A stretch of DNA of 64,000 nucleotides from an uncultured Fimbriimonadales bacterium (GTDB taxonomy: Bacteria; Armatimonadota; Fimbriimonadia; Fimbriimonadales; GBS-DC), in NCBI GenBank assembly GCA_937992175.1, contig CALKLF010000008.1, positions 7,847-71,846 on the forward strand. Direction: 5' to 3'. The position numbers and the translations under genes are program-made. Below, piece by piece: positions 30,140-39,591 of the stretch; the first letter of the stretch is position 1, and each line of letters begins with the position of its first letter. The notes beneath the pieces are model-generated. The model ran no database searches. It worked only from the letters and a program-made list of their open reading frames with translations, and was not told where the DNA came from.

Positions 30140-30700
30140 ATGGCGAAGGTTCTGGAGAAACCCGCACGGCGCAAACGCAAAATGACCGAGGCAGAATTCA
30201 TGCGCCTGCCTGACGATGGACGCAAGTACGAACTGGTTGACGGGGAGGCAAAGGAAGTGCCTGCGAGTGTGAAGCACGATGTAATCGCGATTGAACTGGC
30301 AGTGCGCCTCAAGCCGCTAGTGGCGGAGGCGGCATACCTTGCAGGGACGCAGGCAGGTTTTCGCATGACAACAGGGAACATTCGCGCCCCTGACCTGTCG
30401 GTGATTTTCAAAAACAGCCTGCCTCAAGGCAAGCTCCCTGACGGTTTCGGCGACCGTGCGCCCGACCTCGCCATCGAAATCGTTTCCCCGAATGAAGATA
30501 TGCCTGACCTGATGCGTAAAATCGGCGAATACTTTGAATCGGGCGCGAAGCAGGTCTGGCTGCTGTTTCCTGAACGCAAGCGGGTCATCGTCTATGACTC
30601 GCCGTTTGAGCAGACCGTCCTCAACGAGAACGACACGCTCACCACGCCACTCATTCCTGAGTTCCGCGCGCGCGTAGGCGATCTATTTGAAGCGGAGTAG
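30140..30700 (+). CDS. Uma2 family endonuclease
   Basis: YELVDG, RAPDL, APDLAIEIVSP, K..Y...G..QVWL. Confidence 0.92.
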   Translation: MAKVLEKPARRKRKMTEAEFMRLPDDGRKYELVDGEAKEVPASVKHDVIAIELAVRLKPLVAEAAYLAGTQAGFRMTTGNIRAPDLSVIFKNSLPQGKLPDGFGDRAPDLAIEIVSPNEDMPDLMRKIGEYFESGAKQVWLLFPERKRVIVYDSPFEQTVLNENDTLTTPLIPEFRARVGDLFEAE

Positions 30701-31912: not shown

Positions 31913-32698
31913 ATGCGTTTACAGGGGCGTGTGGCGTGGATTACGGGCGCGGCGCAGGGGCTGGGCGAGGCGTTGGCGCATCGGCTCGCCCAGGAAGGCT
32001 GCATCGGGCTGGCGCTGAGCGATATTCAGACTGAGAAACTAAACGCCGTCGCCCACGCAATTCACGCCCAACATCCCCACTGTGAGACACTGGCTCTGCC
32101 CTGCGATATTCGCCACGAGCAGGAGGTTGTGGACGCCGCCCTGCATATTGACCGACGATTCGGAAAACTGGATCTCCTCGTGGCGAACGCGGGCGTGATC
32201 CACTCCGCCGAGCTGACCGAGATGACGCTGGAGCAGTGGCAGTGGCAGATTGATGTGAACCTGACGGGCTACTTCCTGTGCGCACGCGAGGCGGCGAAGC
32301 TGATGAAGCGCGGGGGCGGCGGCGCGATAATCCAGATTAACTCTAAATCGGGGCTGAAGGGGAGCTACAAGAACTGCGCCTACGCCGCGAGCAAGTTCGG
32401 CGGGATTGGGCTGACCCAGAGCATCGCGATGGACCTAGCCCCCTACGGGATTCGGGTGAACGCGGTGTGTCCGGGCAACCTGCTCGATTCGCCGATGTGG
32501 CAGGGGACGCTGTTTGAGCAGTACGCGCGGAAGTGGGGACTGCCTGAAGAGGCGATTCGTCGCTATTATGAGGCGCAGGTTCCGCTGGGGCGCGGCTGCA
32601 CTTATGACGATGTGGCGAACCTCGTGGTGTTTCTGGCGTCGAGCGAGGCGAGTTATATTACGGGCGAGGCGTATCGGGTGGCAGGAGGGCAGCTATAA
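31913..32698 (+). CDS. srlD: SDR oxidoreductase, sorbitol-6-phosphate 2-dehydrogenase-like
   Basis: TGAAQGLG, VNLTGYFLCAREAA, QINSKSG, YAASKFGG, CPGNLLDSP. Confidence 0.8.
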   Translation: MRLQGRVAWITGAAQGLGEALAHRLAQEGCIGLALSDIQTEKLNAVAHAIHAQHPHCETLALPCDIRHEQEVVDAALHIDRRFGKLDLLVANAGVIHSAELTEMTLEQWQWQIDVNLTGYFLCAREAAKLMKRGGGGAIIQINSKSGLKGSYKNCAYAASKFGGIGLTQSIAMDLAPYGIRVNAVCPGNLLDSPMWQGTLFEQYARKWGLPEEAIRRYYEAQVPLGRGCTYDDVANLVVFLASSEASYITGEAYRVAGGQL

Positions 32699-33160
32699 CG
32701 AACCAGGTTCATCGTGAGCGCACTCCAGATGCACCCAGCCGTAGCCGCGCTGAGGGGTTATCAGTTGACCAAGGCGAATCGGACGAGCGCAGGCGCGGCA
32801 GAAGCCCTGATAGCGCGCCTCAATCACGCGCCGCGCGGCGCGCTGCTGACGGTCGCGACAGCCGACATGCACCCAGTAGCCCCAGCGGGGGTGGCGCGTG
32901 ATGGGGTCGCCTGGGTTAATCGGCGCGCCGCACCCAGTGCATGTCTCCCGATAGCGCGCGGGGATGATGCGCGGCGGCGGTTCGCGTCGCGGAACGAGAC
33001 GCTCAGTCGCCTGCATCAGTTGTCGCAGAGCTTCCTGATAGCCGCGGCGGGGCGCTTGCGCCACAGGCTCAGGCTGCGCGGGAGCGGGGTTCGCGCCGTT
33101 GTTCTCGCGCAAACGCTGATTCTCTTGCCAGCGACGGTTAATCGGTATTGGCTTTGCCAT
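32693..33160 (-). CDS. Tandem CxxC...HxxC zinc-finger protein (last gene of the ubiquitin-like operon)
   Basis: ARYRETCTGC...WVHVGC and ARYQGFCRAC...WVHLEC; starts 3 nt after the E1 stop. Confidence 0.8.
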   Translation of the reverse strand: MAKPIPINRRWQENQRLRENNGANPAPAQPEPVAQAPRRGYQEALRQLMQATERLVPRREPPPRIIPARYRETCTGCGAPINPGDPITRHPRWGYWVHVGCRDRQQRAARRVIEARYQGFCRACARPIRLGQLITPQRGYGWVHLECAHDEPGSL

Positions 33161-33163
33161 CGT

Positions 33164-34609
33164 TCAGCTCCCTCGCGGGGCAGGAATCGGTTTCCCGCGT
33201 CGCGTGCGTCGGCTCTGGCGCGGGAGGTATCCCTGCAGCCCATACAATCCCTGCCCCAACAGGCTGTCGGGATGCTCCGAGCAGAGCAGGCAGTTCGGGT
33301 TGCGCTCGGCGCGGGCAGGAAACGCCTGTTGCTGGAGCAGGTCGTAATAGACATACGGCTGCACAGGCGCGCACCCCGTAGCTAATTTTACCAGCTCCCA
33401 CGCCAGCAGGTTCCCTACAACGCCGTTGAGGAACACTACCTGCGGGTTCGGGATGTGTTCGCCCTGAATATAGCCGCCGCGGATGGAGAGTTCGCGCTGG
33501 TGGGGGGTGAGCTGCTCCTCCACGCTCTGGCGGACGCCTCGCTCCACGCAGGCGATGCAGGCGGTCTCGCCCGGCAGGATGAGCTGCACCTGCCCGCCGC
33601 CCTGCGCAATCCCCCCGTTCTCGCTGCGCACGCCCACACCCGCGTCCAGATAGGGAATCAGGGCGCACATCGCGACGGTGTTCAGATACTGGCGCACGAC
33701 CGCGCTGTCCACCGCACCGACAATCACATCGCAGCCGAGCAGGTGGGCGAGGACCTGGGGCGTGCGGGCGTCGCGAGGGATGGGGACAATCGTGCGCAGT
33801 TCAGGCGGGCGGGCGCGGTTGAGTCGCAGCGCTAACGCACGCACTTTGCGCCATCCCCGCCGCGCCTGCGCATAACTCGCGCCCACCACCCGATTCAGAT
33901 TGCTCAACTCCAGTCGGTCGGGGTCGATCAGCAGAATCTGCCCGACGCCCAACAGCGCGAGCGCGTTCGCAATCTGCGAGCCTAAGCCCCCTGCGCCCAC
34001 CAGCGCGACGCGAAGGCTGCTCAGAATCGCCTGACCCTCCGCCCCAAACGCGCGAATCTGACGGTCGTACACTGTCCGCTCCGCCCAGTCGAGCCAGAGT
34101 AGTTTTTGTCCTGTGCTGTAGCGCGTTTCGAGGGGCGCGCGGAGGACGCGCAGCCGCACAATCGGCGCGAAGCGCTCCCGCTGATAGTCCCAGAACCGCC
34201 CTTCGAAGCTCATGTCGTTGCCGAACACGAGGCTGCCGTGCCGAAACGGGGGCGACATACTTTGCGTGGTCTGGAACTTCAGCAGGTCGCTGCGGTCGTC
34301 AATGGACGAGAAGCGCGGATTCGTACCCCACGGATGGGTATGCGCCTCCAGCAGGCTGTAGCCCTCGCGAGCGCAGCGCACCAGCAGCCCATGCACGAAC
34401 TCTGGGCGCGTTTCTACCAGGCTGTGGGTGCGATGGGCGTAGGCGTTTTCGGGTACGGGTACGACCTCACGCGCGAGGAATATCACGCGCGATTCGCTCT
34501 CCAGCGTCCGGCAGAGCAGGAAACACTTGGTCTCCACGCTACAGTCGGCGAGCAGAACCGCGCGCAGGCGCGCCCAGAGCGCGTGAGGGAGCCGAACCTC
34601 GCCTATCAT
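33164..34609 (-). CDS. JAB/MPN metallopeptidase fused to a ThiF/E1-like adenylyltransferase
   Basis: E...HTHP-x6-S-x2-D JAMM motif; YDRQ, VGAGGLGS, DPDRLELSNLNR, GAVD, CIAC and CLLC Zn sites. Confidence 0.93.
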   Translation of the reverse strand: MIGEVRLPHALWARLRAVLLADCSVETKCFLLCRTLESESRVIFLAREVVPVPENAYAHRTHSLVETRPEFVHGLLVRCAREGYSLLEAHTHPWGTNPRFSSIDDRSDLLKFQTTQSMSPPFRHGSLVFGNDMSFEGRFWDYQRERFAPIVRLRVLRAPLETRYSTGQKLLWLDWAERTVYDRQIRAFGAEGQAILSSLRVALVGAGGLGSQIANALALLGVGQILLIDPDRLELSNLNRVVGASYAQARRGWRKVRALALRLNRARPPELRTIVPIPRDARTPQVLAHLLGCDVIVGAVDSAVVRQYLNTVAMCALIPYLDAGVGVRSENGGIAQGGGQVQLILPGETACIACVERGVRQSVEEQLTPHQRELSIRGGYIQGEHIPNPQVVFLNGVVGNLLAWELVKLATGCAPVQPYVYYDLLQQQAFPARAERNPNCLLCSEHPDSLLGQGLYGLQGYLPRQSRRTRRGKPIPAPRGS

Positions 34610-35121
34610 TGGAATGGATCGTCGTCAATATCGTCCAGATCGTCCAGAGCCACGATGATGAACTCCGTCGGGTTGCGTTTCCATCGTTTGAGCGCGTCGC
34701 GAATCAGTTCACACACGCTGAGCAGGGAGTGTCCCTCCAGCGGATTGGCGGCTGGCTTCCAGCTATGGATATGCAGGCAGCACGCTGTCCAGCCTTTCAT
34801 CTGGGGCGGGGCGTCCGCCAGTTGGCTGGCGCGATTGGGGTCGAAGCGGGTCTCGTTATAGAAGACATGGCTCGGCTTCCTGCCGTCGGCGAGGCGCAGG
34901 TTGTCGTCGACATAGAACCAGTCGGGCGGCGTCTGCGGGTAGTTCGGCGGCAGCAGGATCAGCACATCGGTTCGCTCGTAGTTATAGCCGGGCGGCAGCG
35001 GGAAGTCCTTGACGACCACCCAGCTGCCGTCTTCATCGTCGTAGTCCGCGCTCTTGGTCTGCGAGTAGCGCGCTGCCGCGAGCGCGACCTCATACGCAAT
35101 CCGCTGGAGCCGCGCGTTCAT
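34606..35121 (-). CDS. Prokaryotic E2/UBC-like protein (Prok-E2 family E-like)
   Basis: WVVVKDFPLPPGYN, LPPNYPQTPPDWFY, GWTACCLH..SWKP; ATGA overlap with the JAB-E1 gene. Confidence 0.88.
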   Translation of the reverse strand: MNARLQRIAYEVALAAARYSQTKSADYDDEDGSWVVVKDFPLPPGYNYERTDVLILLPPNYPQTPPDWFYVDDNLRLADGRKPSHVFYNETRFDPNRASQLADAPPQMKGWTACCLHIHSWKPAANPLEGHSLLSVCELIRDALKRWKRNPTEFIIVALDDLDDIDDDPFQ

Positions 35122-35124
35122 GGC

Positions 35125-35319
35125 TTAGAACGCCCCATCCTCCCAGCGCGGCAGTCGCTCGATGGACGGAACCCGCTCCAGAATCTCGTCGGGCGTGGGC
35201 AGCGGCGTATCCAGCACCATCGGGTCGTTCTCCGTGTTGGGCAGCACGGGCTTCAGCGCAATCTCGAACTCCGTATCGTTAATGCGCACCTTCTCCTTGA
35301 CTGTGGTTGCGTTTGCCAT
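35125..35319 (-). CDS. 64-aa putative ubiquitin-like modifier precursor ending RWEDG-AF
   Basis: First gene of the operon, stop 3 nt before the E2 ATG; near-terminal Gly followed by a 2-aa extension. Confidence 0.7.
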   Translation of the reverse strand: MANATTVKEKVRINDTEFEIALKPVLPNTENDPMVLDTPLPTPDEILERVPSIERLPRWEDGAF

Positions 35320-35352: not shown

Positions 35353-35404
35353 ATTATACCCCAAACGCCCTGGAAAAGTTTCCAGTCTCTCTGCAGGGTA
35401 TAAT
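35353..35404. promoter_or_regulatory. Back-to-back GGTATAAT -10 boxes for the ubiquitin-like operon (minus, 35353-35358) and sdhB (plus, 35399-35404)
   Basis: Perfect TATAAT on each strand in the divergent intergenic region. Confidence 0.65.
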
Positions 35405-35426
35405 CCTTATTCGGAGGCGAAACCTT

Positions 35427-36242: not shown

Positions 36243-37078
36243 TGCGCATCTTAGTCACGAACGACGATGGCGTGTACGCCGAGGGGATTCGGGTGCTGGC
36301 GCAGCGGCTGAAGCCCCTCGGCGAGGTCTTTATTGTTGCGCCCGATCGCCCGCGCAGCGCGACGGGGCACTCCATCACGCTGCACAAACCCCTGCGCCTG
36401 CATCGGATTCACCTTCCTGACGGCTCGATTGCCTACGCCACAAACGGCACGCCGACGGACTGCGTAACGCTCGGCGCGCACGCCGTGCTGAACCATCAGG
36501 TCGACCTCGTGGTGTCGGGCATCAACGCCGGTCCGAACCTCGGCTGGGATTTGACCTATTCGGGCACGATAGCGGCGGCGATCGAGGGCGCGATACACGG
36601 GATTAACGCGTTTGCGGTCTCGCTGGCGGCGGAGGAGGTGTTGCCGTTAGCCCGCGCGGAGGCGACGAACGAGCCGTTCCAGAGCGAGCTGCCCCCGATG
36701 CACTACGAGACCGCCGCACTCGCCGCGCTGAACATCGCCCGCCTGCTGCGCGAGCATCCCCTGCCTGAGCATACCTTTCTGAATGTGAATGTGCCGAACC
36801 TGCCGATTCATGAGATCAAGGGCTACCAGATTACCGCGCTTGGCAGGCGACAGTATGCGGATCGAATCGAGTCGCGCGTCGACCCCGCGGGACGCCCTTA
36901 CTACTGGCTCAGCGGCAGCCTTGTGGAGGAACGCGACCAGCCGAGCACGGATGTCTACGCCGTCGCGCACGGCTATGTGTCGATTACCCCCGTGCATCTG
37001 GACTTCACGGCGTACAACCTGCTGGAGCCGATGCAGGAGTGGCTGAGTAAGTTGCGTTTGATTACGGATGGGTGTTAG
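36242..37078 (+). CDS. surE: 5'/3'-nucleotidase SurE
   Basis: MRILVTNDDG, GTPTDC, SGINAGPN, YSGT, VSITP. Confidence 0.97.
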   Translation: MRILVTNDDGVYAEGIRVLAQRLKPLGEVFIVAPDRPRSATGHSITLHKPLRLHRIHLPDGSIAYATNGTPTDCVTLGAHAVLNHQVDLVVSGINAGPNLGWDLTYSGTIAAAIEGAIHGINAFAVSLAAEEVLPLARAEATNEPFQSELPPMHYETAALAALNIARLLREHPLPEHTFLNVNVPNLPIHEIKGYQITALGRRQYADRIESRVDPAGRPYYWLSGSLVEERDQPSTDVYAVAHGYVSITPVHLDFTAYNLLEPMQEWLSKLRLITDGC

Positions 37079-38097
37079 GCATTTTCGGGCGCGCTGGAAA
37101 CGATTCGCGCCTGCTCGAGGAACGCTTCCAACGTGGGCACATCCAGCGCGGCGTCGAAGAGCGTTTCCAAGGCAGGCGCGTCCGAAATCGCCTCAACCAG
37201 TGGCTGCGCCGTCTTCGCGGCGTCCCCGAAACGACGGCTCAAGGCGCGTATAATCGTTTTTCTGAGGGTTTCCACTTGTCCTTCGGCGCGCCCTTCGGCA
37301 AGCCCTTTCTCGCGCCCTTCGGCAAGCCCCTTTTCAATCGCGCGCTTTTCCAGCCGCGACACGAACGGCGTCTTCCGACGACGCTTATACTCCTCCACCA
37401 GCTCGTCTACCTGACGCTCCAAAGTCTCTGGCAGCATAAGTACCCACTCCAGCAGGCGCAAAATCTGCGCCTGCTGATTATGAGTATACCCGTACTCCAT
37501 CATCAGCGCAATCAGCCGCTTGCGCGCCTCGAATCGGGCGTCTATGTTCCCCTCTGTTTCCATCGCCTTTCGAAACGCCAGCAACATCAGCGCAGCAGGG
37601 TTTCTACGCTTCGCCTGCTCAGTCAGGTATCGCTCGCCCATCTCCAGCAGCTTCACCGTGTGGAACTGGAAGTCGAGGCGCGTGCCTGGCAGTTCGCGCA
37701 CATAGCGGTCAGGACGCCAGTTCGGGTTCTTGTCGGCGTAAATCACGATACAGACGATGTCGGTGCGGAGTTCCAGCCACGCGCGGGCGTAATAGGCGAA
37801 TACGCGCTCTTCCATCCTGGCTGCAAACTGCGACTGAGCCTCCAGGTGAATGTAGACGCCGCGCGGTTCGCCGTTTTTGAGCCACACGCGAGCAAGGCGG
37901 TCGGGGTAAAGCTTGCCCGTTTCGCTTTGCGGAGAGAGGCGTCGCAGCTCGGCGTCCACAAACTGGGGTCTGCGCTTCCAGTCAATCATCGCATAGAGTT
38001 CATGCAGGATCAACTTGATGAGTTGGCGGAAGAAGACCGTGATAAACTCCTTCCATGGGCTGTCGTAGTCTGCGCGCGATTGCTCCCGCGACTCCAT
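37075..38097 (-). CDS. Rpn-like / PD-(D/E)XK putative transposase-nuclease family protein (paralogue 2)
   Basis: DYDSPWKEFITVFF, HLEAQ, GLAEGREKGLAEG repeat; closely similar to 4513-5529. Confidence 0.82.
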   Translation of the reverse strand: MESREQSRADYDSPWKEFITVFFRQLIKLILHELYAMIDWKRRPQFVDAELRRLSPQSETGKLYPDRLARVWLKNGEPRGVYIHLEAQSQFAARMEERVFAYYARAWLELRTDIVCIVIYADKNPNWRPDRYVRELPGTRLDFQFHTVKLLEMGERYLTEQAKRRNPAALMLLAFRKAMETEGNIDARFEARKRLIALMMEYGYTHNQQAQILRLLEWVLMLPETLERQVDELVEEYKRRRKTPFVSRLEKRAIEKGLAEGREKGLAEGRAEGQVETLRKTIIRALSRRFGDAAKTAQPLVEAISDAPALETLFDAALDVPTLEAFLEQARIVSSAPENA

Positions 38098-38169
38098 AGC
38101 AGGCTAATTCGCACAAGAACAAACTTTCCCTGCCAGAGGATTAGCCACATTATGGAACAATCCTTCTGT

Positions 38170-39591
38170 ATGCGGCAGGTGGATGTGCTGGTGATTGGCA
38201 GTGGGCCCGCGGGGCAGCGCGCGGCGATTCAGGCGGCGAAACTCGGACGCAGCGTCGCGATTGTCGAGCGACAGACCAGCCTCGGCGGGGTGTGCATCAA
38301 TACGGGCACAATCCCCAGCAAGGCGCTGCGCGAGGCAATCCTGCAACTCACAGGCAAACGGGGCGGGCTTTATCACGAAACCAGCACAGGGATCCCCAGC
38401 GACCTGACCATTCAAGACTTGGTCGCGCAGTGCCAGCACATCATCCGCACAGAGCAGGCAGTGATACGCGAGCATCTGCAGAAAAACGGCGTGCAGATGC
38501 TCTGGGGCAACGCCTATTTTGAGGACGAATACACCGTGCGCGTGATTCAGCCGACGGGGCACGAGGTGGTGCGCGCCGAGGCGATTATTCTGGCGGTCGG
38601 CACGGTTCCCGCGCGCCCACCGCATATCCCCTTCGATGACCAGCGGGTGGTGGACAGCGACTCGTTCCTGCGTCTGCCGCGCCTCCCAAAGAGCCTGATT
38701 ATCGTGGGCGGCGGGGTGATTGGCGTGGAGTACGCCTGCATGATGAACCTGCTGGGCGTGCGCGTGATTCTGGTGGAGGCGCGCCAGCGACTGCTCGATC
38801 TTGTGGACACGGAGATCAGCGAGGCGTTGCAGTATCATATGCGCTCGGCGGACATCACGCTGCGTCTGGGCGAGCAGGTGAGCCAGGTGCAGATTCTCCC
38901 CTGCGGTCTGGTGGAGGCGACTTTGGCAAGCGGCAAGCACCTGCGCGCGGAGGCGTTGCTCTACTGTATCGGGCGGCAGGGCGCGACTGCCACGCTGGGG
39001 CTGGAGAAAATCGGGCTGGAGCCTGACTCGCGCGGACGACTGCAGGTCAACGAGCGGTTCCAGACGGCAATTCCCCACATTTACGCGGTAGGAGATGTGA
39101 TTGGCTTCCCCGCGCTGGCAAGCACCTCGATGGAGCAGGGGCGCGTCGCGGCGCTCCACGCCTGCGGCGAACCCGTTGAACAGAGCTGCCCACTGTTCCC
39201 CTACGGAATTTATACTATCCCTGAAATCGCGATGGTGGGCAAGACGGAGGCGCAGCTCACGGCGGAGGGTGTGCCCTATGAGGCGGGCGTGGCGCACTAT
39301 CGCGAAACCGCGCGCGGGCAACTGCTCGGCGATACGCACGGCATGCTCAAAATGCTCATCCACGAGGAGACGCGCGAGATACTCGGGGTTCACGCTATTG
39401 GCGCGGGCGCGACGGAGCTAATTCACATCGGGCAGGTGGCGATTGCCTTTCACGCCACCGTGGACTACTTTCTGAAGGCGATTTTCAACTATCCGACGCT
39501 TGCCGAGTGCTACAAAATCGCCGCGCTGAACGGCAGCAATAAGCTCCGCATGCTGCAGCAGGAGACGAAACTGGAGCGACGAGCAGCGTAG
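38170..39591 (+). CDS. sthA: Soluble pyridine nucleotide transhydrogenase
   Basis: IGSGPAG, GGVCINTGTIPSK (single Cys), GDVIGFPALASTSMEQGR, FNYPTLAE. Confidence 0.92.
   Translation: MRQVDVLVIGSGPAGQRAAIQAAKLGRSVAIVERQTSLGGVCINTGTIPSKALREAILQLTGKRGGLYHETSTGIPSDLTIQDLVAQCQHIIRTEQAVIREHLQKNGVQMLWGNAYFEDEYTVRVIQPTGHEVVRAEAIILAVGTVPARPPHIPFDDQRVVDSDSFLRLPRLPKSLIIVGGGVIGVEYACMMNLLGVRVILVEARQRLLDLVDTEISEALQYHMRSADITLRLGEQVSQVQILPCGLVEATLASGKHLRAEALLYCIGRQGATATLGLEKIGLEPDSRGRLQVNERFQTAIPHIYAVGDVIGFPALASTSMEQGRVAALHACGEPVEQSCPLFPYGIYTIPEIAMVGKTEAQLTAEGVPYEAGVAHYRETARGQLLGDTHGMLKMLIHEETREILGVHAIGAGATELIHIGQVAIAFHATVDYFLKAIFNYPTLAECYKIAALNGSNKLRMLQQETKLERRAA

Follow-up and report, generated by a model that had tools for sequence, protein, structure and literature searches.

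A four-gene operon of a Fimbriimonadales bacterium that probably encodes a remodelled relative of the Type I Bub conjugation pathway

The window analyzed here is a 64-kb stretch of DNA (64,000 nucleotides) from an uncultured Fimbriimonadales bacterium. Its minus strand carries, at 32693-35319, four tightly packed, co-oriented open reading frames (ORFs), which make up the operon described in this report:

35125-35319, minus strand: small protein precursor, 64 residues with the C-terminus G-A-F; ORF read from the sequence
34606-35121, minus strand: E2 of the Prok-E2_E/BubB type, 171 residues; Pfam PF14462 and PDB match
33164-34609, minus strand: JAB-E1 fusion, 481 residues; Pfam ThiF and Prok-JAB
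32693-33160, minus strand: tandem zinc-finger (ZnF) protein, 155 residues; two C-x2-C...H-x2-C repeats

A 3-nucleotide gap separates the small gene from the E2 gene (TAA-GCC-ATG), the E2 and E1 genes overlap by four nucleotides (ATGA), and the E1 and ZnF genes are again three nucleotides apart (TGA-ACG-ATG). A first-pass annotation of this DNA had claimed four co-oriented genes with 3-nucleotide gaps or an ATGA overlap, and the ORFs and junctions are exactly as it described them. Its account of the products, namely a 64-residue protein ending G-A-F, an E2-like protein, a JAMM-ThiF fusion and a two-finger zinc protein, also agrees with the ORFs, the Pfam searches and the alignments.

The closest described pathways are those named Bub, which were reported in 2024, have conjugation without a catalytic cysteine as their hallmark and are of unknown biological role (Ye et al. 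2024 preprint, PMC11601596). In this account, Type I Bub (6E.1) consists of BubAB, BubCD and BubE, and the tag is held as a tyrosine oxyester on the E1 and as a serine oxyester on the E2 (PMC11601596). The first-pass annotation had proposed a tagging operon composed of a ubiquitin-like protein (Ubl), an E2 and a JAB-E1. Our searches sustain this proposal and relate the operon to Bub, with the E1 matching BubCD at E=2.6e-24 and the E2 matching BubB at E=7.3e-5 as a single sequence and 2.9e-13 as a profile. The operon is probably a self-contained E1-E2 conjugation system that comes from the same stock as Type I Bub and has been remodelled. In the window, the small gene and the E2 gene share a reading frame, with TAA-GCC alone between them. 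Read-through of this stop codon to give a BubAB-like fusion was considered and rejected: the two genes are in frame here and at the related locus L045, and a 4-nucleotide gap or an ATGA overlap separates them elsewhere.

The JAB-E1 fusion divides into two domains, the second of which contains the codon for a candidate catalytic tyrosine:

34115-34609, minus strand: JAB/JAMM peptidase domain, residues 1-165; Prok-JAB E=8.9e-4, aligned with the BubCD peptidase domain
33164-34114, minus strand: E1 adenylation domain, residues 166-481; ThiF E=1.3e-40 and BubCD alignment
33470-33472, minus strand: E1 Y380 codon, at the position of the BubCD crossover tyrosine

The Prok-JAB match falls below the Pfam cut-off. 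Citrobacter BubCD is the best solved relative, aligning over residues 15-406 of 481 and thus across both domains; MoeB (E=7.7e-18) and MccB (E about 3e-7) rank behind it. In an alignment of 13 E1s (A5), the JAMM residues E26, H90, H92, S101 and D104 are invariant in every sequence, as are the nucleotide-binding glycines and R240, which aligns with BubCD R227. Y380, in the sequence G-G-Y-I-Q-G, aligns with BubCD Y370, in R-G-Y-I-T-G, and is likewise present in all 13; the effects of the BubCD Y370F and R227A substitutions are shown in the Bub paper (PMC11601596). The crossover loop lacks a cysteine, with none between C354 and residue 390. Two C-x2-C pairs in the style of MoeB and ThiF, C351/C354 and C440/C443, are kept in the E1 and are absent in Citrobacter BubCD. 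PADLOC and NCBIfam returned no system-level or specific family call for the operon; their output was limited to weak ThiF/MoeB matches and to matches that cover part of the E1. The PADLOC run that the first-pass annotation had recommended gave partial E1-E2 matches confined to the E1 core (best E=5.3e-19), and it called no system.

In a tree of E1 sequences, the family forms a clade with support of 100/100 on a long branch and groups by genus; the tree has long branches and does not place the clade relative to the Cys-type loci L046 and L047 or to the Ser-type groups. The outgroup was the genome's other ThiF-like gene (L002; G000:C51:18134-21499), which is 33% identical to the E1 core and lies in a 496-residue frame. 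Ahead of its adenylyltransferase, this frame has what reads as a fused domain of the small carrier-protein kind.

The E2 matches Prok-E2_E (PF14462) with E=7.9e-14 (51.9 bits, cut-off 25), and its only significant solved relative is Citrobacter BubB. The profile searches suggested by the first-pass annotation returned ThiF and Prok-E2_E clearly and Prok-JAB below threshold. The candidate catalytic codons are:

34921-34923, minus strand: E2 D67; alignment with the BubB aspartate region
34777-34779, minus strand: E2 C115; motif alignment
34771-34773, minus strand: E2 H117; motif alignment

The motif W-x3-[C/S]-x-H-x3-W has identical spacing in the window's E2 (W-T-A-C-C-L-H-I-H-S-W) and in the Ser-type relative L133 (W-A-W-F-S-V-H-I-E-S-W). 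Because the spacing is shared, Cys115 would stand on the serine and His117 on the histidine. A cysteine occupies the [C/S]-x-H position in 70 of 72 family-type E2 matches, and the other two lie on cut contigs. Among 25 distant E2 relatives, 18 have serine, two have cysteine (L046 and L047) and five fall outside the pattern; the distant database homologues P0032 and P0033 read Ser-Leu-His. These alignments suggest that the lineage pairs a Bub-type tyrosine on the E1 with a canonical-type cysteine on the E2. The earlier statement that the catalytic residues differ from the described versions thus stands for the E2, with its cysteine in place of serine, and fails for the E1, in which Y380 aligns with the BubCD crossover tyrosine.

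The product of the first gene is the candidate tag:

35134-35319, minus strand: predicted mature small protein, M1-G62; conservation and complex model
35125-35133, minus strand: A63-F64 tail plus stop; part removed in the predicted processing

It has 29 database homologues with 73-94% identity, none of them functionally named. All end in L-P-R-W-E-D-G followed by one to four variable residues (AF, AY, MH, GC, GR, GANA, GGDA and others), and G62 does not vary among the 19-21 sequences aligned in A1 and A4. A processed tag would be expected to show just such a pattern, an invariant glycine followed by a variable tail. In more distant genera, this end and a hairpin-like segment at the N-terminus are retained, and the proline-rich middle varies. 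The ratio of nonsynonymous to synonymous differences (pN/pS) is 0.10-0.14 relative to three orthologues, which indicates purifying selection and therefore a real coding gene. The protein has no family match in Pfam (Multi_ubiq included), PADLOC or NCBIfam, and a full beta-grasp is not predicted for it; the modifier type does depart from the described ones, as had been claimed. AlphaFold2, run with a 19-row alignment, places a hairpin at residues 7-22, a long coil, a short helix at 43-49 and a tail. One may see in this arrangement the initial half of a beta-grasp with a C-terminal tail, in a model too weak for certainty. By position, the small gene takes the place of the Ubl in both fused (L046-L048) and unfused (L120-L139) relatives, and its hydrophobic-P-x-x-E-x-G end is similar to VPFHEYG, with which the Ubl of L046 and L047 ends ahead of the E2 domain.

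Small carriers are also found with a JAB peptidase and a MoeB-like E1, as in the QbsE/QbsD/QbsC and CysO/Mec sets. The small protein could accordingly be a sulfur carrier or an adenylated peptide and not a transferable tag, a reading that we consider the least probable of those discussed here. The glycine with a short removable tail, the JAMM peptidase and the ThiF/MoeB-type E1 are all present, the E1 keeps its two MoeB/ThiF-typical C-x2-C pairs, MccB, which adenylates a peptide, is among its solved relatives, and the missing prediction of a full beta-grasp would fit as well. However, a conserved [C/S]-x-H E2 always accompanies the small gene, and BubCD, a conjugating enzyme, is by far the closest solved relative of the E1, catalytic tyrosine included. 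A Pfam scan of the E1 found no rhodanese or sulfurtransferase domain, and no biosynthetic genes adjoin the operon among the window ORFs and scanned neighbors. With its conserved E2 and without these components, the operon does not belong with the sulfur-carrier sets, which combine a beta-grasp carrier with sulfurtransferase or biosynthetic partners and have no E2.

A complex of the JAB-E1 (13-row alignment) and the small protein in its precursor form (19 rows) was modelled. Three runs gave interface scores (ipSAE) of 0.73, 0.74 and 0.01, with a median of 0.73, and the best of three controls reached 0.00; the mark used for ipSAE is reached by 58 of 80 solved complexes and by 2 of 110 mismatched pairs. 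Contact agreement among the runs was at least 0%, and the predicted local distance difference test score (pLDDT) of the partner was at least 46. The best run sets residues 28-64 of the small protein on the peptidase domain, with W59 against E1 residues 66, 67, 72 and 111. Tail residues 55-64 are at the JAMM site, where residues 60-64 pack against E26, H90, H92 and S101-D104. This modelled pose is that expected of a precursor awaiting a cut after Gly62, not that of adenylation. JAB-Ubl and BubCD-BubA complexes have already been solved, and the pass of the model may therefore partly reflect likeness to them.

The same model bears on a further alternative, in which the small protein is a regulator or pseudo-substrate held in the JAB active site and some other species is conjugated, such as the ZnF protein or an unlinked protein. 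Its sole modelled interface is indeed at the peptidase domain and not at the adenylation site, and no fold or sequence link to Ubls was found. However, the precursor form was modelled, so a peptidase-bound pose is to be expected; moreover, the small gene sits exactly at the Ubl place of the fused and unfused relatives, the end of its product resembles VPFHEYG, and the invariant glycine with a variable tail is what a processed tag should have. We judge the pseudo-substrate explanation to be quite improbable, though less so than the carrier reading.

The fourth gene encodes a protein without a family match in Pfam, PADLOC or NCBIfam. Its recognizable parts are:

33128-33160, minus strand: ZnF head motif MAKPIPINRRW; sequence and alignment
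32834-32965, minus strand: ZnF finger 1; C74, C77, H98 and C101, plus R89-H90
32711-32824, minus strand: ZnF finger 2; C121, C124, H144 and C147

The head, [K/R]-P-I-P-x-N-[K/R]-R-[W/F], is invariant and present at 42 of 42 loci. It is followed by a variable linker and two A-R-Y-x3-C-x2-C...W-V-H-x2-C repeats, each providing one C-C-H-C site with a 20-residue spacer, and finger 1 has an extra conserved histidine. An AlphaFold2 model has a pLDDT of 80.9, rising above 90 in both fingers. Fold comparison matches finger 1 to the RING domains of ZNRF1, Ark2C, RNF165, RNF38 and RNF12 (Z 5.3-6.2), the best with Z 6.2 and a root-mean-square deviation of 2.2 Å over 50 residues and others with Z 5.3-5.5, all of them below the tool's caution line of 8. 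A RING E3 has a cross-brace fold in which eight zinc ligands form two sites, and a surface that binds the E2. Finger 2 matches C1 domains with Z of about 5. A PARP-type zinc finger has the pattern C-x2-C, long spacer, H-x2-C and binds DNA breaks; the ZnF repeats have this order of ligands, but their spacer is one of 20 residues. Comparison with the PARP-1 fingers gave Z 4.4-4.8, and E=0.011 for the tandem in Foldseek; no Foldseek match to the ZnF model reached E<=0.001. Pfam zf-PARP does not match the window's protein, and the relative P0204, with 30.2 bits, stays under the cut-off of 39.3. A ZnF profile found nothing among PDB sequences (best E=9.6), and the ESM Atlas returned only an Armatimonadota cluster of its own and scores below 0.9.

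The same profile retrieved 343 proteins at E<=0.001 from 1.84 billion representatives, 12 of them at E<=1e-30, and the finger therefore represents a wider, unnamed domain. Many of the proteins that contain it are tiny; among the ten longer ones that were scanned, there are weak DUF2175 and sub-threshold zf-PARP signals. The first-pass annotation had noted that the fourth gene is unlike that of described systems, and Pfam, genome scoring and a direct profile alignment concur that it is not DUF6527. DUF6527/BubE (PF20137) was found neither in the four operon proteins nor among the scored candidates in the bacterium's own genome, which is 93.76% complete. Alignment of the ZnF family with a DUF6527 ORF by hhalign gave a probability of 0.4%. 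The positive control, the DUF6527 protein of a canonical Type I Bub locus from the same order (L048), was recognized at 6.4e-22. A role for the ZnF protein as a stand-in protease for BubE was rejected, because beyond the zinc ligands and R89/H90 it has no conserved Ser, Cys or Asp. Lys3 of the head was rejected as an obligatory acceptor, since an arginine is found there in the L035 variant and in one metagenome head.

The ZnF protein is most likely the specificity partner of the E2, either as an E3-like adaptor or else as the main substrate. The E1 ends in KPIPAPRGS (K-P-I-P-[A/T/I]-P-R-G-x in this genus), eight codons before the K-P-I-P of the ZnF head, and distant E1s have related P-K-x-[I/L]-P or P-I-P tails at their C-termini. 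One may speculate from these sequences that the ZnF head and the [K/R]PIP tail of the E1 are a shared docking peptide, with the two proteins docking in turn at one site.

The source names of homologues point to metagenome-assembled genomes of Fimbriimonadales (Armatimonadota), and DNA nearly identical to the window's is held in sequencing runs with the labels marine metagenome and hot-spring metagenome. Of 121 genomes of the order, 28 have the E2: 24 of 28 from the bacterium's own family, 3 of 68 from a second family, all weak and Bub-like matches, and 0 of 24 from three others. Within its own family, the counts by genus are 15/16, 4/4, 3/4, 2/2, 0/1 and 0/1, so that four of the six sampled genera have it. 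The three family genomes in which the E2 is missing have no JAB-E1 either. In another genome, G030, a JAB-E1 lies alone on a separate contig with a Uma2 gene directly upstream.

Gene order was read at 18 of 34 places in genomes, of which 15 are family-type, and at 79 loci from a metagenome scan, of which 57 are family-type; the two sets of counts are not independent, because they partly overlap and the loci are kin. The small gene is directly upstream of the E2 gene at 15/15 family-type genome loci and at 52/57 metagenome loci. Of the remaining five, two are cut after the E2 and do hold the small gene; the other three have an E2 with no tblastn match to the small gene, and two of these hold decayed small-gene remnants. 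Eleven genome loci have the full four-gene order, two (L035 and L041) have small, E2 and ZnF genes, and two (L033 and L043) have only the small and E2 genes. Among the metagenome loci, 26 have all four genes and six have an E1 on a contig that ends before the ZnF gene; without an E1 there are 18 small-E2 pairs and two loci that add a ZnF gene, and two further loci are those cut after the E2. Wherever an E1 is present and the contig allows, the ZnF gene follows it directly (11/11 genome and 26/26 metagenome loci). The first-pass annotation had held that E1/E2 pairs lacking the small and ZnF genes would speak against a common pathway; the genome counts, with the small gene at every family-type locus and the ZnF gene at every such locus with an E1, support it.

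The ZnF gene accompanies the small and E2 genes without an E1 at L035, L041, L114 and L115, and the ZnF protein of L041 has one finger and 117 residues. Cassettes of small and E2 genes only are represented by L033, L043 and L064-L085. At L079 and L082, a remnant of the small-gene end (..P-x-W-K-D-E-G-Y) lies upstream of an intact E2. In each of three genomes checked (G021, G048 and G070), an E1-less cassette occurs in addition to a full operon, which suggests that several tag-E2 pairs are served by one E1. A scan of genome contigs with the ZnF alignment returned 12 loci, all from Fimbriimonadales/Armatimonadota; this restriction is partly by construction, because a single pattern was taken from the head motif. 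A scan of viral contigs with the E2 alignment gave 16 pattern stretches, none of them a relative.

These observations allow us to propose a mechanism. The JAB domain would trim the 64-residue precursor directly after the invariant Gly62, removing Ala-Phe, as conservation and the complex model suggest. By homology with BubCD, the E1 would then adenylate Gly62 and take the tag onto Tyr380 as an oxyester. The tag would pass to Cys115 of the E2 as a thioester with the assistance of His117 and Asp67, the hand-off being proposed by homology and the thioester from the motif alignment, and the E2 would move it onto lysines of target proteins. No BubE protease was found, and the JAB domain therefore probably also strips the tag from targets. 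The ZnF protein might act as an E3-like adaptor or be the main substrate, docking through its KPIP head; this last step is speculative.

Several results weigh against this proposal. The small protein shows no similarity to Ubls in Pfam, its alignment matches the Ubl part of the L046 fusion with an hhalign probability of 0.1%, and the ESM Atlas offers no usable match. Its AlphaFold2 model is of low confidence (pLDDT 66.5, predicted TM-score 0.22) and contains nothing beyond the hairpin and a single short helix. In the complex model, the small protein is bound at the peptidase domain and not at the adenylation site, and one of the three runs failed, with the ipSAE of 0.01. For the E2, the position of Cys115 as the nucleophile rests on motif alignment, not on structure, and the HMMER alignment sets the BubB W-S-R-H beside a 4-residue gap whose placement is ambiguous. 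The role given to the ZnF protein draws on gene order and on fold matches below the caution line, to RING domains first and then to C1 and PARP fingers. Among ten longer finger-domain matches that were scanned, one carries a UvrD helicase and one an AAA ATPase, and such fusions fit nucleic-acid binding or general protein binding as well as they fit an E3 role.

The first-pass annotation had assigned the operon a box of its own, and it is present:

35353-35360, minus strand: GGTATAAT box, candidate -10 element of the operon, about 33 nucleotides upstream of the small-gene ATG; read from the sequence

Another GGTATAAT, at 35397-35404 on the plus strand, lies ahead of a divergent sdhB-like gene, so that the two transcription directions share an identical upstream box. 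In contigs of relatives, sdhB likewise has a comparable box upstream (loose ends at 35413). A consensus promoter scan that requires a -35 match lists neither box, because neither has a matching -35 hexamer; GGTATAAT is thus no more than a candidate promoter element. Contigs from two RNA libraries of one study, derived from relatives with 90-97% identity, cover much of the operon; records 16 and 21 span the junction of the small and E2 genes, and record 17 that of the E1 and ZnF genes. Since DNA can occur in such libraries, these contigs are a weak hint of operon transcription.

The flanking genes are of housekeeping types, as the first-pass annotation had stated: domain scans identify an SDR, YbjQ, MscS, an sdhB-like iron-sulfur protein, SurE and a pyridine-nucleotide oxidoreductase. 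Only close relatives keep the operon syntenic with the SDR and sdhB/SurE genes. In other genera, where neighbors were judged from the starts of their ORFs, these look like genes for RNase PH, DnaX, acetyl-CoA synthetase, a deacylase and a CdaA-like protein. Neither a CapW/BrxR nor a CapH+CapP-like regulator adjoins the operon among the window ORFs and scanned neighbors. A 340-residue ORF at 37075-38097 on the minus strand, without a Pfam match at E<=1e-5, runs antisense to the opening kilobase of a long plus-strand frame (37072-39591), the remainder of which is the oxidoreductase gene; it is kept beside surE in L045 with 93% identity. A Uma2-family gene, putatively restriction-endonuclease-like, lies at 30140-30700 on the plus strand. 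Uma2 genes recur within a few kilobases of the cassettes in the window and at L033, L035, L039, L064-L067, L072, L075, L080, L081 and L142. With 12 Uma2 copies in the 2.8 Mb of the bacterium's own genome, this looks commoner than chance, although the loci are kin to each other.

The same machinery could serve in antiphage defense, a role that has been proposed for other systems of the Bub, Bil and CBASS types. It would tag phage or host proteins during infection, with the fast-evolving ZnF protein as the sensor or targeting part. We give this explanation somewhat less than an even chance. Within the order, the Bub locus L048 lies beside ORFs that their sequences name as antirestriction-like, methylase, HTH-peptidase and PIN-like, and L046 and L047 adjoin genes for a Cas10-palm-like cyclase and a Card1-type CARF protein, which makes theirs look like a signalling-linked defense island. 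For Bub in general, mobile-element and defense-locus contexts are reported by authors who saw no phage protection so far (PMC11601596). Housekeeping genes are the neighbors here and, by the reading of ORF starts, in other genera. The position of the operon differs among genera, and nuclease-like genes of the Uma2 family are repeatedly close by. Divergence is much faster in the ZnF protein (36-77% identity) than in the small protein (73-94%), and extra E1-less cassettes occur, some of them decaying. However, the E2 is retained in 24 of 28 sampled family genomes and four of six genera, the E1 tree groups by genus, and viral contigs yielded no relative. PADLOC matched the E1 domain only, and no defense-type regulator of the kinds sought adjoins the operon. 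Taken together, a cellular function is favored by retention throughout the family and by the housekeeping setting; immunity is favored by the fast-evolving ZnF protein, by additional cassettes and their decay, by the shifting location and by the relatives' defense ties. The odds between a cellular or stress pathway and antiphage defense are roughly even.

A more specific elaboration of the proposed conjugation pathway would be the following. The tag would be a Pup-like, 62-residue half-beta-grasp or disordered protein, carried as a tyrosine oxyester and then as a cysteine thioester; the ZnF protein would be a one-zinc RING-like E3 docking via [K/R]PIP; and the operon would form a vertically inherited, non-defense regulatory or proteostasis pathway of a thermophilic family, with extra tag-E2 cassettes that share one E1 as eukaryotic E2s do. 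We consider this combination unlikely as a whole, though better placed than the pseudo-substrate and carrier alternatives. A Bub-like E1 tyrosine next to an E2 cysteine would offer a natural test case for the interconversion of oxyesters and thioesters in evolution. A 62-residue tag would raise the question of how little of the ubiquitin fold a set of E1, E2 and JAB needs, and where Bub has the BubE protease, this operon has a zinc-finger protein, perhaps a minimal E3 or else a substrate. Near-universal in one heat-loving family and set among housekeeping genes, the operon is a place to seek a non-defense role of bacterial ubiquitin-like tagging. Its proteins are small and probably thermostable and should suit reconstitution.

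In the literature searched, as far as its available sections go, there is no Cys-type Bub E2, unfused mini-tag or zinc-finger partner of this kind; Table S1 of the Bub preprint, with 544 operons, may include some. The archaeal cascade of Caldiarchaeum resembles the operon in encoding, along with a tag, an E1 and an E2, a peptidase of the JAMM type and a small protein that binds zinc and could be an E3 (PMC5654768, PMC6043591). It uses a true ubiquitin and a two-zinc RING, whereas the fingers here have one C-C-H-C site each and are only weakly like RING domains (Z 6.2). Bil (BilABCD) likewise combines a Ubl, an E2, a JAB peptidase and an E1, with a thioester-capable E2 and pre-processing of the Ubl by JAB, according to its descriptions (PMC11601596, 10.1101/2023.09.26.559546); here, in contrast, a single adenylation domain is fused to JAB, and a tyrosine replaces the E1 cysteine. 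Type II CBASS shares an E1 adenylation domain and a JAB peptidase in Cap2 and Cap3, but Cap2 is an E2-E1 fusion that conjugates a CD-NTase, whereas the E2 here is separate and neither a CD-NTase nor an effector is present. Pup, a largely disordered tag of about 60 residues, is like the small protein in these respects; it is ligated through the side chain of a C-terminal glutamate by the glutamine-synthetase-like PafA, with no E1 or E2.

Closer relatives are found in metagenomes and within the order. The metagenome loci L120-L139 have a separate tag gene directly upstream of the E2 gene, the same motif spacing and the E1 crossover tyrosine. They differ in that their tags, of 76-87 residues (183 in L139, where the N-terminal part is DUF1508-like), have the look of ordinary Bub Ubls, the E2s are of the Ser-x-His type, and a ZnF homologue was not detected by tblastn. 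These Ubls end in Gly, or in GG with four further residues. L120 and L129 have separate genes for the JAB and the E1, and in L133 a 256-residue Cys-rich protein is encoded about 0.8 kb downstream. In L046 (1878-10803) and L047, family f3 of the same order, a 71-residue Ubl ending in V-P-F-H-E-Y-G is fused to a Cys-type E2 (F-C-L-H), and the Ubl-E2 gene is followed by genes for a 269-residue multi-pass membrane protein, a protein of 186/216 residues, a weakly vWA-like protein and the JAB-E1.

Type I Bub provides the nearest comparison. The operon shares with it the fusion of JAB to a single E1, with a crossover-loop tyrosine in place of a catalytic cysteine and the adenylation arginine conserved; a BubB-type Prok-E2_E E2 with a histidine at +2 and an upstream aspartate; a Gly-ended tag that the JAB domain exposes, which is a prediction here; and the gene order tag-E2-E1. 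The tag marks the first departure: all Type I Bub operons have a Ubl fused to the E2, according to the Bub preprint (PMC11601596), and this Ubl has beta-grasp domains, one to three in number, whereas the tag here is a separate 64-residue protein that does not match Multi_ubiq and for which a full beta-grasp is not predicted. The second is Cys115 of the E2, at the place of a serine that the same preprint calls invariant (PMC11601596). The third is the fourth gene, which encodes the ZnF protein, with no DUF6527/BubE found in the operon. The operon is also kept across its family among housekeeping genes and not on mobile elements. On account of the departures in tag, E2 residue and fourth gene, we class it as a variant of Bub and not as a member.

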